Of a stretch of DNA of 64,000 nucleotides, positions 47,105 to 63,660 are shown in pieces. The DNA is taken from IMG/VR virus record IMGVR_UViG_3300026549_001031. One strand, written 5' to 3'. Origin of the DNA: a virus (taxonomy: Duplodnaviria > Heunggongvirae > Uroviricota > Caudoviricetes). Positions within the stretch are counted from its first letter, which is position 1. Every line of letters begins with the position of its first letter. The notes under the pieces are model-generated. The model searched no databases. It was not told the DNA's origin and saw only the letters and a program-made list of their open reading frames with translations. Position numbers and translations under genes: made by a program.

Positions 47105-47133
47105 TTGACAGAGTGGAATTTATATGGTAAGAT
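47105..47133 (+). promoter_or_regulatory. sigma-A promoter of the large tRNA/ncRNA array
   Basis: TTGACA-17-TAAGAT with extended TG, upstream A-tracts. Confidence 0.75.
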
Positions 47134-47368: not shown

Positions 47369-47568
47369 CTTTTAAACATTGATATTAAATCAATGGTGCA
47401 TGAGGTAGTTTCTGACTTGGCAAGAGAAAAGTGGAATGAATTAAGAGGTGACCAGCTTGTGAAAAATGTTAAGACATCACAAGTAGCAGATAGAATCGTT
47501 AGTGAGTTATCAGACAGAATAGTTCATGATTTGACGATTAAGGTTTATAGTAGTAATTAAGAAGATAT

Positions 47569-47641
47569 GGGTCATTAGCTCAGTTGGGAGAGCACGTGAC
47601 TTTTAATCACGGGGTCATGGGTTCAAATCCCATATGGCTCA
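47569..47641 (+). tRNA. tRNA-Lys(UUU)
   Basis: GGGTCAT/ATGGCTC, cgtga-CTTTTAA-tcacg. Confidence 0.95.
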
Positions 47642-47682
47642 TTGATAGGCTTCACAACCATTAAAATTAAGATAAGGTGTAT

Positions 47683-47898: not shown

Positions 47899-47903
47899 CT
47901 ACA

Positions 47904-48022
47904 TTCTATGTGAGGTTATTGACGGTGGTCAATGCTAAAGTTCCTTAAAGGTTTCTGCTGTAACAGGTGGAGTAATATTAAACACGTGGTTTCGTGTGTT
48001 CAACCATGCGACTTACATAGAG
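47904..48022 (+). ncRNA. unassigned multibranch structured RNA in tRNA array
   Basis: 11-bp closing stem 47904-14/48012-22 enclosing several hairpins. Confidence 0.5.
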
Positions 48023-48064
48023 GGTAACAAGGGCATTAATACTAATGCCCTTAACAATGAAAAC

Positions 48065-48146: not shown

Positions 48147-48177
48147 CTAGCATGTTTAATCATGCAAAATAGAATAT

Positions 48178-48265
48178 GTAGTTGTACTCAAGAGGTTTAA
48201 GAGGATCCCCTGCTAAGGGATTAGGTCAGTAAAATGATGCATGGGTTCGAATCCCATCAACTACG
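48178..48265 (+). tRNA. tRNA-Ser(GCU)
   Basis: GTAGTTG/CAACTAC, atccc-CTGCTAA-gggat, long variable arm. Confidence 0.93.
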
Positions 48266-48267
48266 CT

Positions 48268-48346
48268 AGGTGCTTTTGGTTCTTACAGCAATTTTTCAGG
48301 CATAGACTTTTAATCTATAAACCATACAGAATCATGTTTAGCACTT
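48268..48346 (+). ncRNA. YUACAGCAAU-module RNA carrying a tRNA-Lys anticodon stem-loop
   Basis: aggtgct/agcactt outer stem; tggttc-TTACAGCAAT ... gaatca-TGT; ataga-CTTTTAA-tctat inside. Confidence 0.7.
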
Positions 48347-48351
48347 AAAAT

Positions 48352-48423
48352 GTGGGTATAGTACATCGGCTAGTACGCTAGTCTTCCACACTAGATAAAC
48401 GGGTTCGATTCCCGTTACCCACT
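48352..48423 (+). tRNA. tRNA-Gly(UCC)
   Basis: GTGGGTA/TACCCAC, ctagt-CTTCCAC-actag, U73. Confidence 0.93.
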
Positions 48424-48424
48424 T

Positions 48425-48541
48425 AATAAATAATGGAGTACATGGGGTTGCCTGGCAGGGCTGAACGGTTCAACTCCGTCTCGAAGTGTGGTACACATAA
48501 GATATAAAAGCAGTTCAAGTCTGCTCGCTTCATTGTTTATT
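48425..48541 (+). ncRNA. tRNA-derived RNA with two T-loop arms
   Basis: 15-bp terminal stem; acgg-TTCAACT-ccgt and agcag-TTCAAGT-ctgct. Confidence 0.6.
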
Positions 48542-48547
48542 TAATAT

Positions 48548-48743: not shown

Positions 48744-48790
48744 CTCTTATCTCAGATCGCTCAATGAGATAAGAATCCTTTGTATAACTT

Positions 48791-48835
48791 AAAAGGTGCC
48801 ATGCATTACAATTTATGTGGTGTGTGGCACTTTTT
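48791..48835 (+). terminator. terminator of tRNA array
   Basis: aaaaggtgccatgcattaca/tgtggtgtgtggcacttttt. Confidence 0.8.
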
Positions 48836-48897
48836 ATGTTGTTATACATAGAAAATGTACATCTAAAATATAATAAGAGTATTTTATTTTTTAATTT

Positions 48898-50543: not shown

Positions 50544-51518
50544 GTGTTAACAGCTAACTTAAATAAAAGGTTCTGTAGGGATACAGGAACAAGCATTGCA
50601 GTGTTTATTGATCCTTATTTTTCAGAGAGAATCAAGTTGCTTGGACTTGAGGAAAAGTACATGGACTTTGAGAAAATGATCAATGAACAGTTTGGAGGAA
50701 TTGAACAACAGTACTTTGAGTATTGTGAACAGGTAGAAAAAGAGGTTCTAGCATTTCTAAAAGATAGTGAGTCACTAAAAAGTTTGCAGACTTGTGATAT
50801 GAGCAAGTATAAAAATACTTTTAGCATTCCTAGTGGAAATGTTTACAAGGGTGACAACATTGGTAAAAAGTACATAAGCATTGATATGGCTAAAGCAAAC
50901 TTCAGTGCATTAGTTCACTACGAGAAAGAAATTGGAATGGACAGTGCAGAAAAGAGTTTTGGACAGTTATGCGGATATGATTACAATAAGTTTATTGATC
51001 ACTTCACAGATAATAAGTTTGTTGCAGAGTCAAAATATGTGAGACAGTACATTTTTGGTCACTGCTGTTCAAAGAGAGTTGTCAACTATGAAAAATGGAT
51101 TATGGGTACAGTAATGGATAAGTTACCTGCCAGTGCAGTAAATAAGGTAGTTACATTGAATAATGATGAAATCATTATTGATGCAGGGGACTTAACATTA
51201 GAAGAGGTAAATGGTCTTAGAATATTAGTTGAACAGCTTTCAGAAGAAATTGTACCATTACATTTTGAATACTTTACACTGAAAGGTTTCTATGGCACAG
51301 AGCAGAAAGTGTTTATGAAGCAGTTCATTGATGAGAATGGACAGCAGAATGGGTACAAGTTAGCATGTAATAATTCAATTGATACAGTGTTCATTGAGAA
51401 GTATTTGCATGGAATTGAAATTACAGACAATGACTTGGTGTTCAACTGTCAGTATGGTTTAGCAAAATTGCTTAAAGTTCCAGAAGCATACACGAAAGGA
51501 ATCAAAAATGTTCAATGA
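50544..51518 (+). CDS. hypothetical protein with polymerase-palm-like motifs
   Basis: YISIDMAKANFSAL, SKYVRQYIFG, NNDEII. Confidence 0.6.
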   Translation: MLTANLNKRFCRDTGTSIAVFIDPYFSERIKLLGLEEKYMDFEKMINEQFGGIEQQYFEYCEQVEKEVLAFLKDSESLKSLQTCDMSKYKNTFSIPSGNVYKGDNIGKKYISIDMAKANFSALVHYEKEIGMDSAEKSFGQLCGYDYNKFIDHFTDNKFVAESKYVRQYIFGHCCSKRVVNYEKWIMGTVMDKLPASAVNKVVTLNNDEIIIDAGDLTLEEVNGLRILVEQLSEEIVPLHFEYFTLKGFYGTEQKVFMKQFIDENGQQNGYKLACNNSIDTVFIEKYLHGIEITDNDLVFNCQYGLAKLLKVPEAYTKGIKNVQ

Positions 51519-52569
51519 GAAATACAGAGAGTTGCTTGAGGGAAGTGAGTATGACTTCTTAAGAGAACACAATAGACTTGGTAAAAAATTAATGATGCTT
51601 GTGGTAAGTGGTAGTAAGGCACATGGAACTGATACACCTACTAGTGATACAGACATTAGGGGTGTGATGGGCAACAGTGTGAATGAACTTGTGAAAGTTG
51701 AAAAAGACTTTGGTACTTTCATTGAAAAAGACACTGATACTTGTATTCATACATTTGATAAAACCTGTGATCTTATGCTATCGTGTAACCCTTCAATCAT
51801 GGAAATGTTTGGATGCAGGGATGAAGAAATCATCTATTATGATAAGCATGGAAAAATGCTGATGGACAATTATGATAAGTTCTTAAGCATTAGGGCAGTG
51901 AGCAGCTTTGGTGGATTTGCTAATGCACAGTTTAACAGAATGAAGCACAGCTTAATTGCAAATGGGCAGAATCCTGATGCAGAGTTAGAAATGCTCAAGC
52001 ATAGTTTAGAAAATGCAATGACAGCGTTTAATGCAACTCATCAGGGAACAGCAATTGATGTACAGATCAGAATGGTAAGTGATCAGGAATTAAAGAGAAT
52101 TCATCCTGAAATTAAGACAACAAGCGAATATGACAAACATCACATTTTAGTTAATGGACACTTTAATGAAGCAGATGTCACTGATTTTAAGACAGTAATT
52201 AGTGAGTTACACAAGATTCAAAGTGAGTATGGCAAGTTGAATAAAGAGAATACAAAGAAAACAGATATTAAGCTTGCTAAACATATGATGGACCTGGTTT
52301 ATATTTACCTTGTTGGGGCAGATCTGAACAGTGGAAAAGGAATGATTACTTACAGAGAAAAAGAGCATGACATGCTGATGGATATTAGGAACATGAAGTA
52401 TTTAACACCAGATGGGTTGAAAGTAAAATCTGACTTCTATGATTTGCTGAATGACATTGAAAAAGAATATATGTATACAGCTAAAAATTGTGTATTACCT
52501 GAGAAACCTGACTATGAGGCAATCAGTGATATGAAAAGACAGGTTTATTTAGATATGCTAGCAGGATAG
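51508..52569 (+). CDS. DNA polymerase beta superfamily nucleotidyltransferase (RlaP/YcgL-like)
   Basis: SGSKAHGTDTPTSDTDIRG, NPSIME, KLAKHM, LPEKPD. Confidence 0.85.
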   Translation: MFNEKYRELLEGSEYDFLREHNRLGKKLMMLVVSGSKAHGTDTPTSDTDIRGVMGNSVNELVKVEKDFGTFIEKDTDTCIHTFDKTCDLMLSCNPSIMEMFGCRDEEIIYYDKHGKMLMDNYDKFLSIRAVSSFGGFANAQFNRMKHSLIANGQNPDAELEMLKHSLENAMTAFNATHQGTAIDVQIRMVSDQELKRIHPEIKTTSEYDKHHILVNGHFNEADVTDFKTVISELHKIQSEYGKLNKENTKKTDIKLAKHMMDLVYIYLVGADLNSGKGMITYREKEHDMLMDIRNMKYLTPDGLKVKSDFYDLLNDIEKEYMYTAKNCVLPEKPDYEAISDMKRQVYLDMLAG

Positions 52570-54225: not shown

Positions 54226-54293
54226 AACTGGTGTACTTACAGCAATCTTTTATAAAACATTTCAGGGTAAAGTTTTTATAGTACACTGTAGTT
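54226..54293 (+). ncRNA. YUACAGCAAU-module RNA, leader copy 1
   Basis: aactG-gtgtac-TTACAGCAAT ... gtacac-TGT-agtt. Confidence 0.75.
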
Positions 54294-54295
54294 AA

Positions 54296-54360
54296 GTTTG
54301 AGGTGCCTACAGCAATTTTTAAATCACATTAGGCATGTATGAAATGTGCACCTTGTAAAC
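54296..54360 (+). ncRNA. YUACAGCAAU-module RNA, leader copy 2
   Basis: gtttG-aggtgc-CTACAGCAAT ... gcacct-TGT-aaac, abutting RBS. Confidence 0.75.
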
Positions 54361-54374
54361 AGGAGGAAAACAAA

Positions 54375-55859
54375 ATGGGTTTAGGATCAGCAATCAGAGA
54401 AGAGGCGTCATGGGGAAAAACGACCAATGGTGCAGATGCAAGGGTAGCAACTGGCAGTGCTTTGCTTGATATGTTTGGACGTGCAGGAGCAATGCGTGGA
54501 GCAGATGAGATTGATAAGCAGATTATGATCTCACAGGCATTCAAGGAAAATGCAGACTTCGCAGTGAAGTTATTGTTCTACACGAGAGATGTTCGTGAGG
54601 GCTATGGTGAAAGAGATACCTTCCATACCATGTTAAGATGGCTTGCATTTGAATCAAAAGAGTCAGTGGAGAAAAATCTCTGGGCAATTCTGGAGTTTGG
54701 AAGAGCAAGTGACCTTTATGCACTTGTTGGAACACCTGCAGAGGATGCAATGTGGGAGTTTATGAGAAATCAGTTCGAACTCGACTACAAAAACATGCAG
54801 GCAGGTAAGAGTATTTCACTACTTGCAAAATGGATGGCTTCGCCTAATTCAAGAACAGCTAAGAAAAAGCAGCTTGGTAAACTGACAGCTAAGGCACTTG
54901 GCTACTCATACAAAAATATGAGAGAGCTTAAGCAGAAAATCAGTGCAATGCGTAAATACCTTGATCTGCCTGAAGTAAAAATGGCAGCAGGCAAGTGGGG
55001 CGAGATTGAGTACAGTACTTGCGCATCGAAAGCACTTCTGTATCACAAGAATGCATTTGCAAGACATGATATGCAGAGATGGCAGGAATACCTGGAGTCA
55101 GTTAACAAGGGCGAAGAGAAGATGAATACAGGCACTTTGACACCTTGTGACATTGTTGCAAAATACAATGACCTGTCTAATGTAGACAAGGCATTGGAGA
55201 CAATGTGGGATAACCTTGAGGATGTAAACGATGGCAATGTGCTTGTAATGGCAGATACATCAGGTTCAATGTTCCACAATCATTTTGGAGGATTAAGACC
55301 TATTTACGTGTCAGTTGCATTGGCAATTTACTTTGCTAAGCATAACAAGGGAGACCTCAAAAACTTGTTTATGACATTTGAGAGTAATCCTCACTTCATT
55401 GAAATTAAGGAGGCTTCACTGTTTGATACAATTCATGCAGTAAAAAAGGCAGAATGGGGCAATAGTACAAACCTTGTGAAAGCATTTGATAAATTGCTTG
55501 AGGTCTGTGTTAAAGGTGGTGTGTCACAGGAAGATATGCCTAAAGCAATCCTTGTTGTTTCTGATATGCAGATCAATTCAGCATCAAGTGCTTGTGATGG
55601 GGAGGGTCGTATCAGTTTCTTTGAAAGCATGTCTAAGAAATATGAGAAGGCAGGATACAAAATGCCACAGCTTGTATTTTGGAATGTAAATGCAAAGAGA
55701 GCAACATTCCATGCATCAAAAGATGATGCAGGAGCATCCCTTGTAAGTGGATTTTCAGTGAATGTGTTTAAGCAGGTCATCGAATGTATTGGTTCTACAC
55801 CATACGAGTTGATGATGAGCATTCTTGAATCCGAGAGATACAAGGACATTGTTGCATAA
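54375..55859 (+). CDS. DUF2828 family protein (TROVE/Ro60-like helical domain + vWA)
   Basis: TTNGA...TGSALLDMF, FYTRDVREGYGER, SLLAKW, MIDAS DTSGSM, WGNSTN, SDMQI, FWNVN; AGGAGG RBS at 54361. Confidence 0.88.
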   Translation: MGLGSAIREEASWGKTTNGADARVATGSALLDMFGRAGAMRGADEIDKQIMISQAFKENADFAVKLLFYTRDVREGYGERDTFHTMLRWLAFESKESVEKNLWAILEFGRASDLYALVGTPAEDAMWEFMRNQFELDYKNMQAGKSISLLAKWMASPNSRTAKKKQLGKLTAKALGYSYKNMRELKQKISAMRKYLDLPEVKMAAGKWGEIEYSTCASKALLYHKNAFARHDMQRWQEYLESVNKGEEKMNTGTLTPCDIVAKYNDLSNVDKALETMWDNLEDVNDGNVLVMADTSGSMFHNHFGGLRPIYVSVALAIYFAKHNKGDLKNLFMTFESNPHFIEIKEASLFDTIHAVKKAEWGNSTNLVKAFDKLLEVCVKGGVSQEDMPKAILVVSDMQINSASSACDGEGRISFFESMSKKYEKAGYKMPQLVFWNVNAKRATFHASKDDAGASLVSGFSVNVFKQVIECIGSTPYELMMSILESERYKDIVA

Positions 55860-55944: not shown

Positions 55945-56078
55945 GACGATGTAGCTCAGCTGGTAGAGCACCTGGAATATATTTTTGTGATTCATGTTGT
56001 TTATCTGTGAATCCTACAGCAATCATTTTTAAATGTTGGCAGCCAGGGGGGTCATAGGTTCGAATCCTATCATCGTCA
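55945..56078 (+). ncRNA. tRNA-like RNA with 67-nt anticodon-loop replacement containing permuted YUACAGCAAU module
   Basis: GACGATG/CATCGTC acceptor, GCTC-AGCTGGTA-GAGC D arm, CCTGG/CCAGG stem, ATAGG-TTCGAAT-CCTAT T arm. Confidence 0.85.
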
Positions 56079-57113: not shown

Positions 57114-58538
57114 ATGAGTGAGGAATTAAAATTTACAGTAAAACAAATTAAAAGCATACCTGGAGAAGTTGTAGCATTGTCATCAATGTTTTATACAGAG
57201 GGTTTTGAAATATATGCAGTGGGTGGTTGTGTAAGAGACTTATACTTAAATAGAACACCACATGATTGGGATTTATGTACAAGTGCAAAACCTGAACAGA
57301 CAATGGAAGTGTTGAAGAAATTTGGAGTATCGTTTACTACAGTAGGTATTGAGTTTGGTACAGTGGAGGCTCAGTGGAATGGCAGTGAGTTTGAAATCAC
57401 AACTTTCAGAAAAGATGGTGATTACAGTGACAGCAGACATCCTGATGTAGTGGAATACAGTACAAATGTATACGACGACTTACAGAGAAGAGACTTCACC
57501 ATTAACTCAATTGCTTATGACTGTGTAAGAAATAAGTTTATAACATTGGATGGTGCAGTGAGTGACCTTAATAATAGGGTATTGCGTTGTGTAGGAGATC
57601 CTGACAAGAGGTTTAAAGAGGATCCTTTAAGAATTTTACGTGCACTCAGGTTTAAGACAGTGCTTGGATTAAGTATTAAGAGTGAGACATCTGATAAAAT
57701 GCATGAACTTAAAGATTTGTTAACTACAGTATCAAAGGAAAGAGTGACAGATGAGTTTAGAAAGATGCTTAGTACAAGAGCATCAATTAAGGAAGGTTTC
57801 ATGGAATATCATGATGTGATCTTTACTTTAATTCATGAACTACAGCAATGTTTTGAATTTGATCAGAGAAACAAGTATCATACACATGATGTTTATGAGC
57901 ATATGCTTTATGTAGCAGACTACTGCAATACTTATATTGATATGCAGTGGTGTGATAAAGAAAAGACCTTTGTAATCAGACTTGCTGGTTTATTGCATGA
58001 CATTGGTAAACCCGATTGCTTCACTATGGATGAAAATGGGCAGGGTCATTTTTATAAACATCCTGTGAGATCAGCAGAGATATGTAAGGTGATGCTTAAA
58101 AAGAATTTCAGACTTACACTGGAAGAATACAATGAAGTCATGGGATTAGTAGAATACCATGACATGGACTTAGGGGATACACCTAAGGCAGTTAAGAGGG
58201 CAATGAATAAGTTTGGGGTCGACTTTATGAAAATGTGGTGTGTCATTAAGCAGGCAGATAAGAATGATCATGTAAATGTGAATGGCATTATGCCTAATGC
58301 AGATATAATTAGAAATGAGATTGATAGCATAGTTGAGGATGGGCAGTGTTTTTCTCTTAAGGACCTTGCTATTTCAGGTGATACAGTTATGAGTTTATTA
58401 GGTATTAGACCTGGTAAGACAGTGGGATTGATATTACAAACATTATTGTCAGAAGTAATAGATGATAAGATTGAGAATGATCCTGAAGTGTTAAAGGGCA
58501 GGGCATTGGAGTTATTTGGAGAGGACATTTCAAAATGA
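57114..58538 (+). CDS. cca: CCA tRNA nucleotidyltransferase with HD domain
   Basis: VGGCVRD, HDWDL, EITTFR, DLQRRDFTINSIA, EDPLRILRALRF, SKERV, LLHDIGKP. Confidence 0.93.
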   Translation: MSEELKFTVKQIKSIPGEVVALSSMFYTEGFEIYAVGGCVRDLYLNRTPHDWDLCTSAKPEQTMEVLKKFGVSFTTVGIEFGTVEAQWNGSEFEITTFRKDGDYSDSRHPDVVEYSTNVYDDLQRRDFTINSIAYDCVRNKFITLDGAVSDLNNRVLRCVGDPDKRFKEDPLRILRALRFKTVLGLSIKSETSDKMHELKDLLTTVSKERVTDEFRKMLSTRASIKEGFMEYHDVIFTLIHELQQCFEFDQRNKYHTHDVYEHMLYVADYCNTYIDMQWCDKEKTFVIRLAGLLHDIGKPDCFTMDENGQGHFYKHPVRSAEICKVMLKKNFRLTLEEYNEVMGLVEYHDMDLGDTPKAVKRAMNKFGVDFMKMWCVIKQADKNDHVNVNGIMPNADIIRNEIDSIVEDGQCFSLKDLAISGDTVMSLLGIRPGKTVGLILQTLLSEVIDDKIENDPEVLKGRALELFGEDISK

Positions 58539-61968: not shown

Positions 61969-63660
61969 ATGTTAGAGATTAAAGGAAAGAATAATACTTG
62001 TAAGGTTTTTACTGATGTCATTGATAGTGCAACAGTTGGGCAGTTGACTAGTTTAATGAATACAGAGGCAGTTAAGGGTAGTACAGTAAGAATTATGAGT
62101 GACTGTCATGCTGGAGCAGGTTCTGTCATTGGAACAACTATGACATTACATGATAAGGTAATACCTAACCTGGTTGGGGTGGACATTGGTTGTTTTACAG
62201 GAGATACAAAGGTGTTTACAGCTAGTGGCTCATGGGCAAAGATTAAAGACCTTGTGGATAAGGGAGTATTCACAGTAGATTCCTATGATACAGAGACTAG
62301 AAGTTTTGTGACAAGTAAAGCAGTAGCAAAGAAAACAAGAGAAAATGCACAGCTTGTTAAGGTAGTGTATCATACAGTATCAAGTATCAATGAGAAGCAG
62401 TTTGAAGTTTACTGTACACCTGATCATAAGTTCTTGACCAGGGGGAATAATGGTGATGAGCATTGGGTTGAGGCAAGTCACTTAAGCTTGGGTATTGAGT
62501 TGGTATCAGAAGATTACAGAGTCATTGTTGATGATGTATGTAGTACAGATAGAGTAGAGGATGTGTACTGTTTAACAGTAGAGGATACACATAGTTTTCT
62601 TATTGAGGGCAGTGTAGTAGTTCACAATTGCGGAATGTTAGCAATTAAATTAAAGGAAAAGCGTATTGATTTTACTAAATTGGACAGTGTTATTAGAAAA
62701 TATGTACCTAGTGGAAAAGAGAGCAACAGTGAGTCTAAAGAGGACAGAACAAGTTTAGATGTTAGGGCATTAAGGTGTTTTGGTAAGACAGGGGCAGCAA
62801 TTAGAGAGGAACTTGCATATAGAAGTGTAGGTACACTGGGAGGTGGGAATCACTTCATTGAGATAGACAAGGATGCTCAGGGTTGTTTATGGTTGGTCAT
62901 TCATACTGGAAGCAGACAGCTTGGAATTGGAGTTTGCAAATATTATCAGGATTTAGCTTACATTAAGTTAAAAGATAAGTTCAATGGTGGCTCAAAGAAA
63001 GACAAGATGAATGAGATAATTGGCAGACTGAAGTCAGAGGGTAGACAGCAGGAGATTAGCAAGGAACTTGATAAGTTTAATAAAACATATAATGAAAAAC
63101 ATCCTCCTATTTCTCATGAGCTAGCATATGTAGAAGGCAGTGATTTTGATGATTACATTCATGATATGAAAATGGTGCAGGATCATGCATGTTGCAACAG
63201 GGCTGAAATTGCTAGAATCATACTTAAGAAAGCAAAGTTGCATGAGGTTGACAGGTTCGAGACAATCCATAACTATATTGATACAGAGAATATGATATTA
63301 AGAAAAGGAGCGATTAGTGCACAAGCAGGTGAAAGAGTGCTAATACCATTAAATATGAGAGATGGATCATTGATTTGTTTAGGTAAGGGCAATCCTGATT
63401 GGAACTACAGCGCACCTCATGGAGCAGGTCGTTTAATGAGCAGGGCACAGGCTAAAGAGAAAATTGCAGTGAAGGATTTTCAGAAAAGCATGGATGGAAT
63501 TTTCACTACTTGTGTAGGTAGAGGTACAATTGATGAAAGTCCGATGGCATATAAGCCAATGGAGAGTATCATTGAAAATATTGGAGATACAGTAGAAATT
63601 GTAGAGAGGATTTTACCTGTATACAATTTCAAGGCTGGCAGTGAGGATGAGGAGGAATAA
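61969..63660 (+). CDS. rtcB: RtcB RNA ligase interrupted by an intein
   Basis: MSDCHAG, VGVDIG|CGM, GTLGGGNHFIE, HTGSR, HNY, RKGA, SAPHGAGR, DESPMAYK. Confidence 0.95.
   Translation: MLEIKGKNNTCKVFTDVIDSATVGQLTSLMNTEAVKGSTVRIMSDCHAGAGSVIGTTMTLHDKVIPNLVGVDIGCFTGDTKVFTASGSWAKIKDLVDKGVFTVDSYDTETRSFVTSKAVAKKTRENAQLVKVVYHTVSSINEKQFEVYCTPDHKFLTRGNNGDEHWVEASHLSLGIELVSEDYRVIVDDVCSTDRVEDVYCLTVEDTHSFLIEGSVVVHNCGMLAIKLKEKRIDFTKLDSVIRKYVPSGKESNSESKEDRTSLDVRALRCFGKTGAAIREELAYRSVGTLGGGNHFIEIDKDAQGCLWLVIHTGSRQLGIGVCKYYQDLAYIKLKDKFNGGSKKDKMNEIIGRLKSEGRQQEISKELDKFNKTYNEKHPPISHELAYVEGSDFDDYIHDMKMVQDHACCNRAEIARIILKKAKLHEVDRFETIHNYIDTENMILRKGAISAQAGERVLIPLNMRDGSLICLGKGNPDWNYSAPHGAGRLMSRAQAKEKIAVKDFQKSMDGIFTTCVGRGTIDESPMAYKPMESIIENIGDTVEIVERILPVYNFKAGSEDEEE
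62191..62628 (+). mobile_element. 146-aa mini-intein in RtcB
   Basis: starts CFTGDT, block B CTPDHKF, block F DVYCLTV, ends VVHN before +1 Cys; no homing endonuclease motifs. Confidence 0.93.

Follow-up and report, generated by a model that had tools for sequence, protein, structure and literature searches.

An RNA with a lysine anticodon-arm mimic in the tRNA array of a giant gut phage or plasmid belongs to a family of DUF2828-associated handle RNAs

Introduction

What is the role of a small RNA that lies in a tRNA array, is not a tRNA, and yet carries the anticodon arm of one? The question is raised by a 64,000-nucleotide stretch of DNA, IMG/VR record IMGVR_UViG_3300026549_001031, which is referred to here as the window. 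Its source is a very large (giant) gut phage or plasmid. A preliminary description had recognized a module between the genes for tRNA-Ser and tRNA-Gly, 6 kb from a gene for a DUF2828 protein, and all of the elements that it named are present there. This module is called RNA A.

Cleavage of tRNAs in the anticodon loop is a common bacterial defense, and PrrC, RloC, PARIS, retron Eco7, and Cas13 are all examples of it. The target of the PrrC anticodon nuclease is tRNA-Lys(UUU). Phages are known to counter such attacks with repair enzymes and with replacement tRNAs; in T4, Pnk and Rnl1 repair the damage done by PrrC. RNA A is a member of a family of handle RNAs that is associated with DUF2828. The best overall explanation appears to be that it is a Y-RNA-like partner RNA of the DUF2828 protein that displays a lysine anticodon arm as a bait for nucleases, a reading that, taken as a whole, falls a little short of an even chance.

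Structure of RNA A

RNA A (48267..48351, plus strand) is the entire spacer that separates tRNA-Ser(GCU), with its last base at 48266, from tRNA-Gly(UCC), with its first base at 48352. Its extent was taken from these tRNA borders and from the minimum free energy fold, and it fills the 85-nucleotide gap almost exactly. RNAfold predicts an outer 8-bp stem, a helix named P1, and a hairpin (-15 kcal/mol). The outer stem, which is lineage-specific, pairs 48267..48274 with 48340..48347 on the plus strand. P1 is a helix of 7 bp between TGGTTCT (48277..48283) and AGAATCA (48328-48334). Directly after the 5' strand of P1 comes a single-stranded core motif, TACAGCAA(T) at 48284..48292, in which TACAGCAA itself occupies 48284-48291; this motif is invariant in alignments A2-A4. 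The 3' strand of P1 is followed by UGU at 48335-48337 (the two together, 48328..48337), and in alignment A4 the U-G after the helix is (near-)invariant. In RNA A the handle thus comprises P1, the single-stranded UACAGCAA directly 3' of its 5' strand, and the UG(U) that comes after the 3' strand. The trailing TGT of the preliminary description is present and, instead of forming a motif of its own, turns out to belong to the handle of the family as its conserved 3' UG(U).

The handle encloses an anticodon-arm mimic (48302..48318), which consists of a 5-bp stem (ATAGA, 48302-48306, with TCTAT, 48314-48318) and a 7-nucleotide loop (CTTTTAA, 48307-48313). As had been noticed earlier, the loop CUUUUAA is identical to the anticodon loop (47600-47606) of the window's own tRNA-Lys(UUU), a genuine tRNA encoded in the same operon (47568..47642, plus strand).

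RNA A does not have the cloverleaf of a tRNA; the acceptor stem, D-arm, and T-arm are absent. It was not called by ARAGORN, and Infernal gave no match to RF00005 on it, even at E<=10. The Rfam models for Y RNA and YrlA gave nothing at the gathering score in the window or in seven related loci, and nothing at E<=10 on 48150-48450. Between RNA A and its close relatives (~90% protein identity) only three positions differ, none of them in P1, the core, or the hairpin. The relative L002 has G in place of A at the counterpart of 48340, which preserves the outer-stem pair as U.G.

The family of handle RNAs

The family was explored in 80 IMG/VR loci with DUF2828 relatives at 35-58% identity and in metagenome contigs. 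A covariance model, R1, was derived from 17 modules that belong to other phages and includes no sequence of the window's lineage; its E-values are rough, as the calibration was short. The top match of R1 in the window is RNA A, which it covers at full length (48273-48338, 55.9 bits, E 1e-10). Over 1.58 Mb around DUF2828 genes, R1 gave 140 hits at E<=0.01, and all 140 lie on the strand of the DUF2828 gene, with 0 on the opposite strand. The core motif is similarly biased in these loci. The gene strand has 161 copies of TACAGCAA and the opposite strand 24, and a strong complementary helix flanks 109 of 172 gene-strand copies vs 2 of 25 opposite-strand copies.

Covariation was examined in an alignment of 20 short modules. 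In P1, seven of nine pairs have changes in both partners, with 89% of cells paired; in the hairpin stem, the same holds for all four of four pairs. Paired cells make up 86.7% overall, compared with 64.6% in shuffles and 33-48% when the partners are slid. The aligned sequences were picked for having the helix, and therefore the strand control and the independent test with R1 carry more weight than these figures.

The core motif generalizes to NACAGCAA among 124 unique model hits. The handle (P1, NACAGCAA, and the 3' UG) is constant, with a joining helix taken as 7-9 bp for the family, and the enclosed cargo is variable, which supports the modular build proposed in the preliminary description. 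Rfam scans of the window and related loci found no family that covers the handle RNAs. No paper was found on a phage handle-RNA family, on the display of anticodon arms by a Ro60-like system, or on phage anticodon-arm decoys in the literature searched. These RNAs are a widespread phage RNA family that is in neither Rfam nor the literature searched and, relative to published knowledge, a variant of the Ro60/Y-RNA kind.

RNA A would be excised from the tRNA operon transcript by RNase P and by 3' processing of the flanking tRNAs. RNA A is probably set free by such 5' and 3' processing of tRNAs, which fits the finding that 49 of the 140 model hits are within 20 nucleotides of a tRNA gene and that RNA A itself abuts two tRNAs.

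Three other structures were considered and rejected. A pseudoknot between UACAG and the 3' YUGUA would need incompatible pairings, since both linkers that flank P1 have zero length. Nor is the complementarity conserved. A second helix (GG/CC) beside the hairpin is paired in 51% of cells and is a subfamily feature at most. The core TACAGCAA cannot stand for tRNA positions 8-15, as long members have a separate D-arm after the motif.

Other handle modules in the window

Exact further copies of the 10-mer YTACAGCAAT are present in the DUF2828 leader (54237 and 54307) and within a tRNA-shaped RNA (56014). All of the copies in the window are on the plus strand and all are intergenic. The two leader copies belong to RNA B (54227..54290, plus strand; R1 27.8 bits, E 4e-4) and RNA C (54297..54357, plus strand; R1 33.9 bits, E 1.6e-5). 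As had been claimed, RNA A has its module in common with the DUF2828 leader; R1 matches it and both leader modules. RNA C ends 5 nucleotides upstream of an AGGAGG ribosome-binding site. The mechanical start of the open reading frame, 54339, falls within RNA C, and the true start of DUF2828 is probably the ATG at 54372, downstream of AGGAGG. Neither RNA B nor RNA C has a canonical anticodon loop.

The tRNA-shaped RNA is RNA D (55945..56078, plus strand), which is 134 nucleotides long and lies just 3' of the DUF2828 gene. Rfam recognizes it as a tRNA with 51.9 bits over the 134 nucleotides. An insert of ~67 nucleotides that holds the handle replaces its anticodon loop, and the strand order is permuted (GATTC..TG..GAATC-C-TACAGCAAT); R1 gives a weak match at 56004-56058. 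Similar "long tRNAs" of 115-135 nucleotides were seen in L014, L017, L023, L050, and L086.

Packed arrays occur in other loci. At L017:9371-9952, and likewise in L015, L014, L083, L039, and L011, the stretch immediately upstream of the DUF2828 gene is crowded with five to seven handle RNAs and long tRNAs. In arrays of the L017 type no two RNAs share a cargo (Tyr, Pro, Lys, and others).

Anticodon loops in the cargo

A 7-nucleotide YUNNNRN loop on a stem of at least 4 bp is present in 33 of 92 modules, while shuffles gave 7.8 (maximum 13). For a stricter comparison, 91 short modules were chosen by TACAGCAA and P1 alone and their loops were compared with 874 real tRNA genes in the same loci. The loop is identical to a real anticodon loop in 26 of the 91, vs 1.1 +/- 1.05 in shuffles (maximum 5 in 300). 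The tally of enclosed loops that the preliminary description had called for, along with a covariance model, thus shows that they are not random. The lysine loop CUUUUAA, of Lys(UUU), makes up 12 of the 26 matching loops and 4.7% of the real tRNAs, a tenfold enrichment (p 6e-10), and it is invariant on nine different stem sequences. The matched types are Lys(UUU), Ser(GCU), Asn(GUU), Pro(UGG), Tyr(GUA), Gly(GCC), Ile(UAU), Leu(UAA), and Phe(GAA). Among the model hits there are also loops of the Thr(UGU), Thr(GGU), Ser(UGA), and Arg(UCU) types.

Long members contain a D-arm, an anticodon-arm, and a T-arm within the handle. Some of these are circularly permuted tRNAs and others are tRNAs in which the handle replaces the anticodon loop, as in RNA D. 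At L081:520-640 and L086:2490-2610, the cargo is a permuted tRNA in which the 3' half, ending in CCA, is joined by a short loop to the 5' half, the topology of YrlA.

There are also mimic loops in which the universal U33 is replaced by A. These are CAGTTAA (Asn-like) and TATGGGA (Pro-like), at L021:6577-6644, L022:12319-12387, L050:11534-11601, and L054:8165-8232. Such loops occur in no real tRNA of the set, and they may be deliberately non-tRNA-like variants.

The DUF2828 protein

The proposed partner of the handle RNAs is the product of the gene at 54372..55859 (plus strand), a DUF2828 and DUF7788 protein by Pfam that falls into PHROG 850, "RNA-binding protein". Pfam TROVE is not matched by it, and phmmer and a profile search found no match for its sequence among PDB sequences. 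The literature found on DUF2828 consisted of unrelated papers, mostly on plants, and a search for named eukaryotic relatives through longer or fused DUF2828 forms found none, which is weak evidence. An AlphaFold (AF2) model of the protein has a pLDDT of 84. Its top 12 PDB matches are all Ro60/TROVE structures (E 5e-8 to 2e-4, TM 0.45-0.56, over >500 columns) and include frog, human, Deinococcus, and Thermus-phage proteins. Since only Ro60/TROVE is found among these 12, the protein is called Ro60-like by its predicted fold, which would be a ring of helical repeats (TROVE-like) followed by a vWA domain.

The link between protein and RNA was examined by a scan of IMG/VR with a 14-base handle pattern that was blind to both cargo and protein. 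It returned 43 modules with the helix, along with many chance matches in coding DNA that have none. DUF2828 is encoded in 13 of the 15 contigs with helix-bearing modules, including all six that are at least 90% complete. The two contigs that do not encode it are fragments estimated to be 22-33% complete. Contigs with the helix-less chance matches served as controls, and none of the five encodes DUF2828. Complete phage genomes have one to five modules each, both directly upstream of the DUF2828 gene and far away. For this family, a place in a tRNA array 6 kb away, like that of RNA A, is thus nothing unusual.

A partnership of the handle RNAs with DUF2828 is probable on the strength of this association. 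The putative protein-binding handle of the preliminary description is supported as an association, together with a predicted Ro60 fold. As partner RNAs of a Ro60-like protein, the handle RNAs appear to be analogues of Y RNAs, with binding that is putative.

Comparison with known RNAs

The nearest likeness is to the Y RNAs of Ro60/Rsr, especially YrlA (PMC4201824; bioRxiv 10.1101/312249; PMC12135203). These are also small RNAs beside the gene for a protein of the Ro60 fold, often several per genome, and in both a terminal helix is the presumed protein site to which a tRNA-derived effector domain is attached. The members at L081:520 and L086:2490 resemble YrlA further in being circularly permuted tRNAs closed within the handle. 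A phage context and a link to RNA-repair genes are shared as well. There are also differences. The protein is DUF2828/DUF7788 and is Ro60-like in predicted fold only, not by Pfam TROVE. The handle is a plain helix with single-stranded NACAGCAA and a 3' UG, unlike the bulged Ro-binding helix of Y RNAs. YrlA has no anticodon arm, whereas RNA A has little else and is without the T-arm/D-arm domain.

Motif searches of the literature gave a sole match, a Dictyostelium pattern. The Class I RNAs of dictyostelids (PMC7919456) are ~60 nucleotides long and have a covarying 6-bp stem that joins the 5' and 3' ends, with a variable interior. The search pattern for them is GTTGRCCTTACAGCAA ... GTCAACTG (PMC5054030). 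Directly 3' of the 5' strand they have an unstructured conserved motif that contains TTACAGCAA, identical to 48283-48291, and 9 of the 11 bases of the 11-nucleotide motif CCTTACAGCAA are identical in RNA A. The stem and UGU are present in RNA A as well, the UGU corresponding to the (C)UGU that follows the 3' strand in Class I RNAs. In contrast to RNA A, Class I RNAs are products of eukaryotic genes, have their own DUSE promoter ~60 nucleotides upstream, and are reported to be unique to Dictyostelia; the operon that contains RNA A is a tRNA operon of bacterial type, from a phage or plasmid and not from a dictyostelid. The known direct binder of Class I RNAs is the RRM protein Rnp1A/CIBP, and no anticodon-arm cargo has been described for them. 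One of four proteins pulled down with DdR-21, one of the Class I RNAs, is DDB_G0281243, a protein of unknown function (bioRxiv 10.1101/2020.04.05.026054). The common handle is a lead on the Class I RNAs of social amoebae.

A third likeness is to the tRNA-Lys, tRNA-Thr, and tRNA-Asn of phage T5, which act against PARIS AriB (PMC11464382, PMC12409363). There too, tRNA-Lys(UUU) is the prime target and phage RNAs with that arm counter the attack, possibly in part by competition. Unlike RNA A, the T5 tRNAs are full and decoding-competent and take the place of the host tRNA that was cut. RNA A, which lacks an acceptor end, a D-arm, and a T-arm, is incapable of decoding.

Possible function as a bait for anticodon nucleases

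The preliminary description had suggested either a decoy role or recruitment to a repair particle, and for both roles the step from the RNA to its function is one that can only be inferred. A bait or competitive inhibitor is ranked first here because the arm is what anticodon nucleases read and because tRNA-Lys(UUU) is the target of both PrrC and AriB. The handle would dock on the DUF2828 ring, as the stem of a Y RNA binds Ro60, and the exposed arm could then be bound by factors that read the anticodon arm of tRNA-Lys. The likeliest of these would be anticodon nucleases of the host that are of the same kind as PrrC, RloC, or AriB. By competing with tRNA-Lys or by trapping the nuclease, the particle would spare translation during infection. 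This nuclease-bait function is put forward tentatively and with somewhat less than even confidence.

Several reported systems are consistent with a bait. AriB has Lys(UUU), Thr(UGU), and Asn(GUU) as targets and Pro(UGG) as a weak one, and T5 tRNAs have been suggested to inhibit it by competition (PMC12409363). Thr(UGU), Asn(GUU), and Pro(UGG) recur among the cargoes. YrlA has been proposed as a competitive inhibitor of a Salmonella anticodon nuclease (PMC7790460), and the Ro60 and Yrl RNAs of Thermus phage phiLo attenuate the host PNPase (PMC12135203). The handle RNAs look like a set of exchangeable baits, because sister RNAs show Asn, Thr, Ser, Tyr, Pro, Gly, Ile, and Leu arms or whole tRNA bodies.

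A number of points weigh against a bait. The cargo of 65 of the 91 short modules matches no real anticodon loop, and so the display of anticodons can account for only part of the family. Taken by itself, RNA A has a modest RNAfold z-score (-2.1). PrrC requires t6A37 (PMC12409363), and a stoichiometric decoy has to compete with abundant host tRNA. The need for a Ro60-like ring is left unexplained. The neighboring genes for RlaP, the CCA-adding enzyme, and RtcB suit a role in repair equally well.

If the bait is real, a ribonucleoprotein that shows bare anticodon arms would be a third kind of phage answer to anticodon nucleases, and the poorly understood Ro60/Y-RNA systems of bacteria and phages would gain a concrete function. 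The displayed anticodon would predict which tRNA is attacked, and the family would be a readout of tRNA-targeting defenses in uncultured hosts. A wider proposal is that a Ro60-like ring with interchangeable anticodon-arm RNAs forms an anti-defense particle, with one bait per class of nuclease and Lys(UUU) first, in which the ring holds, inhibits, or hands over the enzyme, and that the handle of Dictyostelium Class I RNAs marks an ancient cross-kingdom ribonucleoprotein. This is speculative and, in its full extent, somewhat unlikely.

Alternatives to a bait

The main rival is an adaptor for repair or quality control. The ribonucleoprotein would be the same, and its cargo would recruit tRNA repair enzymes (RNA ligase, RlaP, CCA-adding enzyme) or guide the ring to damaged tRNA-Lys, much as a Y RNA tethers Ro60 to PNPase. 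The system does sit among genes for RlaP (51508-52569), a CCA-adding/HD enzyme (57114-58538), and an intein-interrupted RtcB RNA ligase (61969-63660; Pfam RtcB and Intein_splicing), and the synteny is kept in L002 and L003. The intein-interrupted form of RtcB was also seen in both of these relatives. An RNA ligase, a CCA enzyme, and RtcB are nearby in L004, and on contig G004 an RNA ligase gene is ~1.4 kb from DUF2828. Bacterial rsr-yrlBA-rtcBA operons are a precedent (PMC7790460, PMC7824862). However, none of the 13 other contigs with DUF2828 and the handle encodes RtcB, and six of these are at least 90% complete. An obligatory link to RtcB is ruled out by this, and the connection to RtcB is valid for the gene content of the window and is not general. 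The PF09414 ligase was above the cut-off in only 3 of the 13 contigs, and in a complete 48.8-kb phage with DUF2828 and a module neither ligase was detected. The missing RtcB and this complete phage with no detectable RNA ligase weaken the case for an adaptor. In addition, an intact anticodon arm mimics an undamaged substrate and not a repair intermediate. A repair adaptor is considered unlikely.

It is more improbable still that RNA A is a damage sensor or regulator. The mimic would be cut by a tRNA-Lys nuclease, cleavage or release from the ring would signal the attack and trigger counter-measures, and the leader copies would couple the signal to translation of DUF2828. The two leader modules, the second of them 5 nucleotides from the ribosome-binding site, are suited to this. 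So are a leader module in L004 with an anticodon loop of the Gly(GCC) type and the sensing of tRNA fragments by RtcR in Salmonella (PMC7790460). Yet RNA A is part of a tRNA operon at a distance of 6 kb from the gene, which precludes an action in cis, canonical anticodon loops are missing from the leader modules of the window itself, and no receiver for the signal was identified.

It is very improbable that RNA A has no dedicated function and is a decayed tRNA-Lys fragment, a small mobile repeat of tRNA arrays, or an attP-like copy of a host tRNA: its place in a tRNA array, its tRNA-like length, the T-arms and D-arms of long family members, and the frequency with which integrative elements carry copies of tRNA gene segments would agree with this, but the comparative data appear to have largely refuted it already, as the loop is invariant and its stem covaries across phages with DUF2828 proteins that are 35-60% identical, the strand bias is 140 to 0, lysine is ten times as frequent as among real tRNAs, the handle and DUF2828 occur together, RNA A has neither the T-arm nor the 3' tRNA half expected of an attP core, and no Pfam integrase match was found among the neighboring open reading frames scanned.

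Other features of the window

The window has a G+C content of 35.6% and contains a tmRNA gene and 18 tRNA genes. No close relative of it was found among deposited phage GenBank records. The tRNA operon that includes RNA A is bracketed by a promoter-like site upstream (47105-47133) and a terminator downstream (48790-48836). Two other spacers of the tRNA array were identified as possibly structured. The spacer between tRNA-Met and tRNA-Ser (47900-48064, 165 nucleotides) has no Rfam match and an unusually good fold (-48 kcal/mol, z -3.6). The spacer between tRNA-Gly and tRNA-Ser (48424-48546, 123 nucleotides) belongs to no Rfam family and has no TACAGCAA handle; it has a 15-bp terminal stem around hairpins with T-loop-like loops (z -3.2). 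Near DUF2828 genes of other phages there are a ROOL RNA (L086:20075-20669, 331 bits) and a HEARO RNA (L017:3737-3938, 160 bits).
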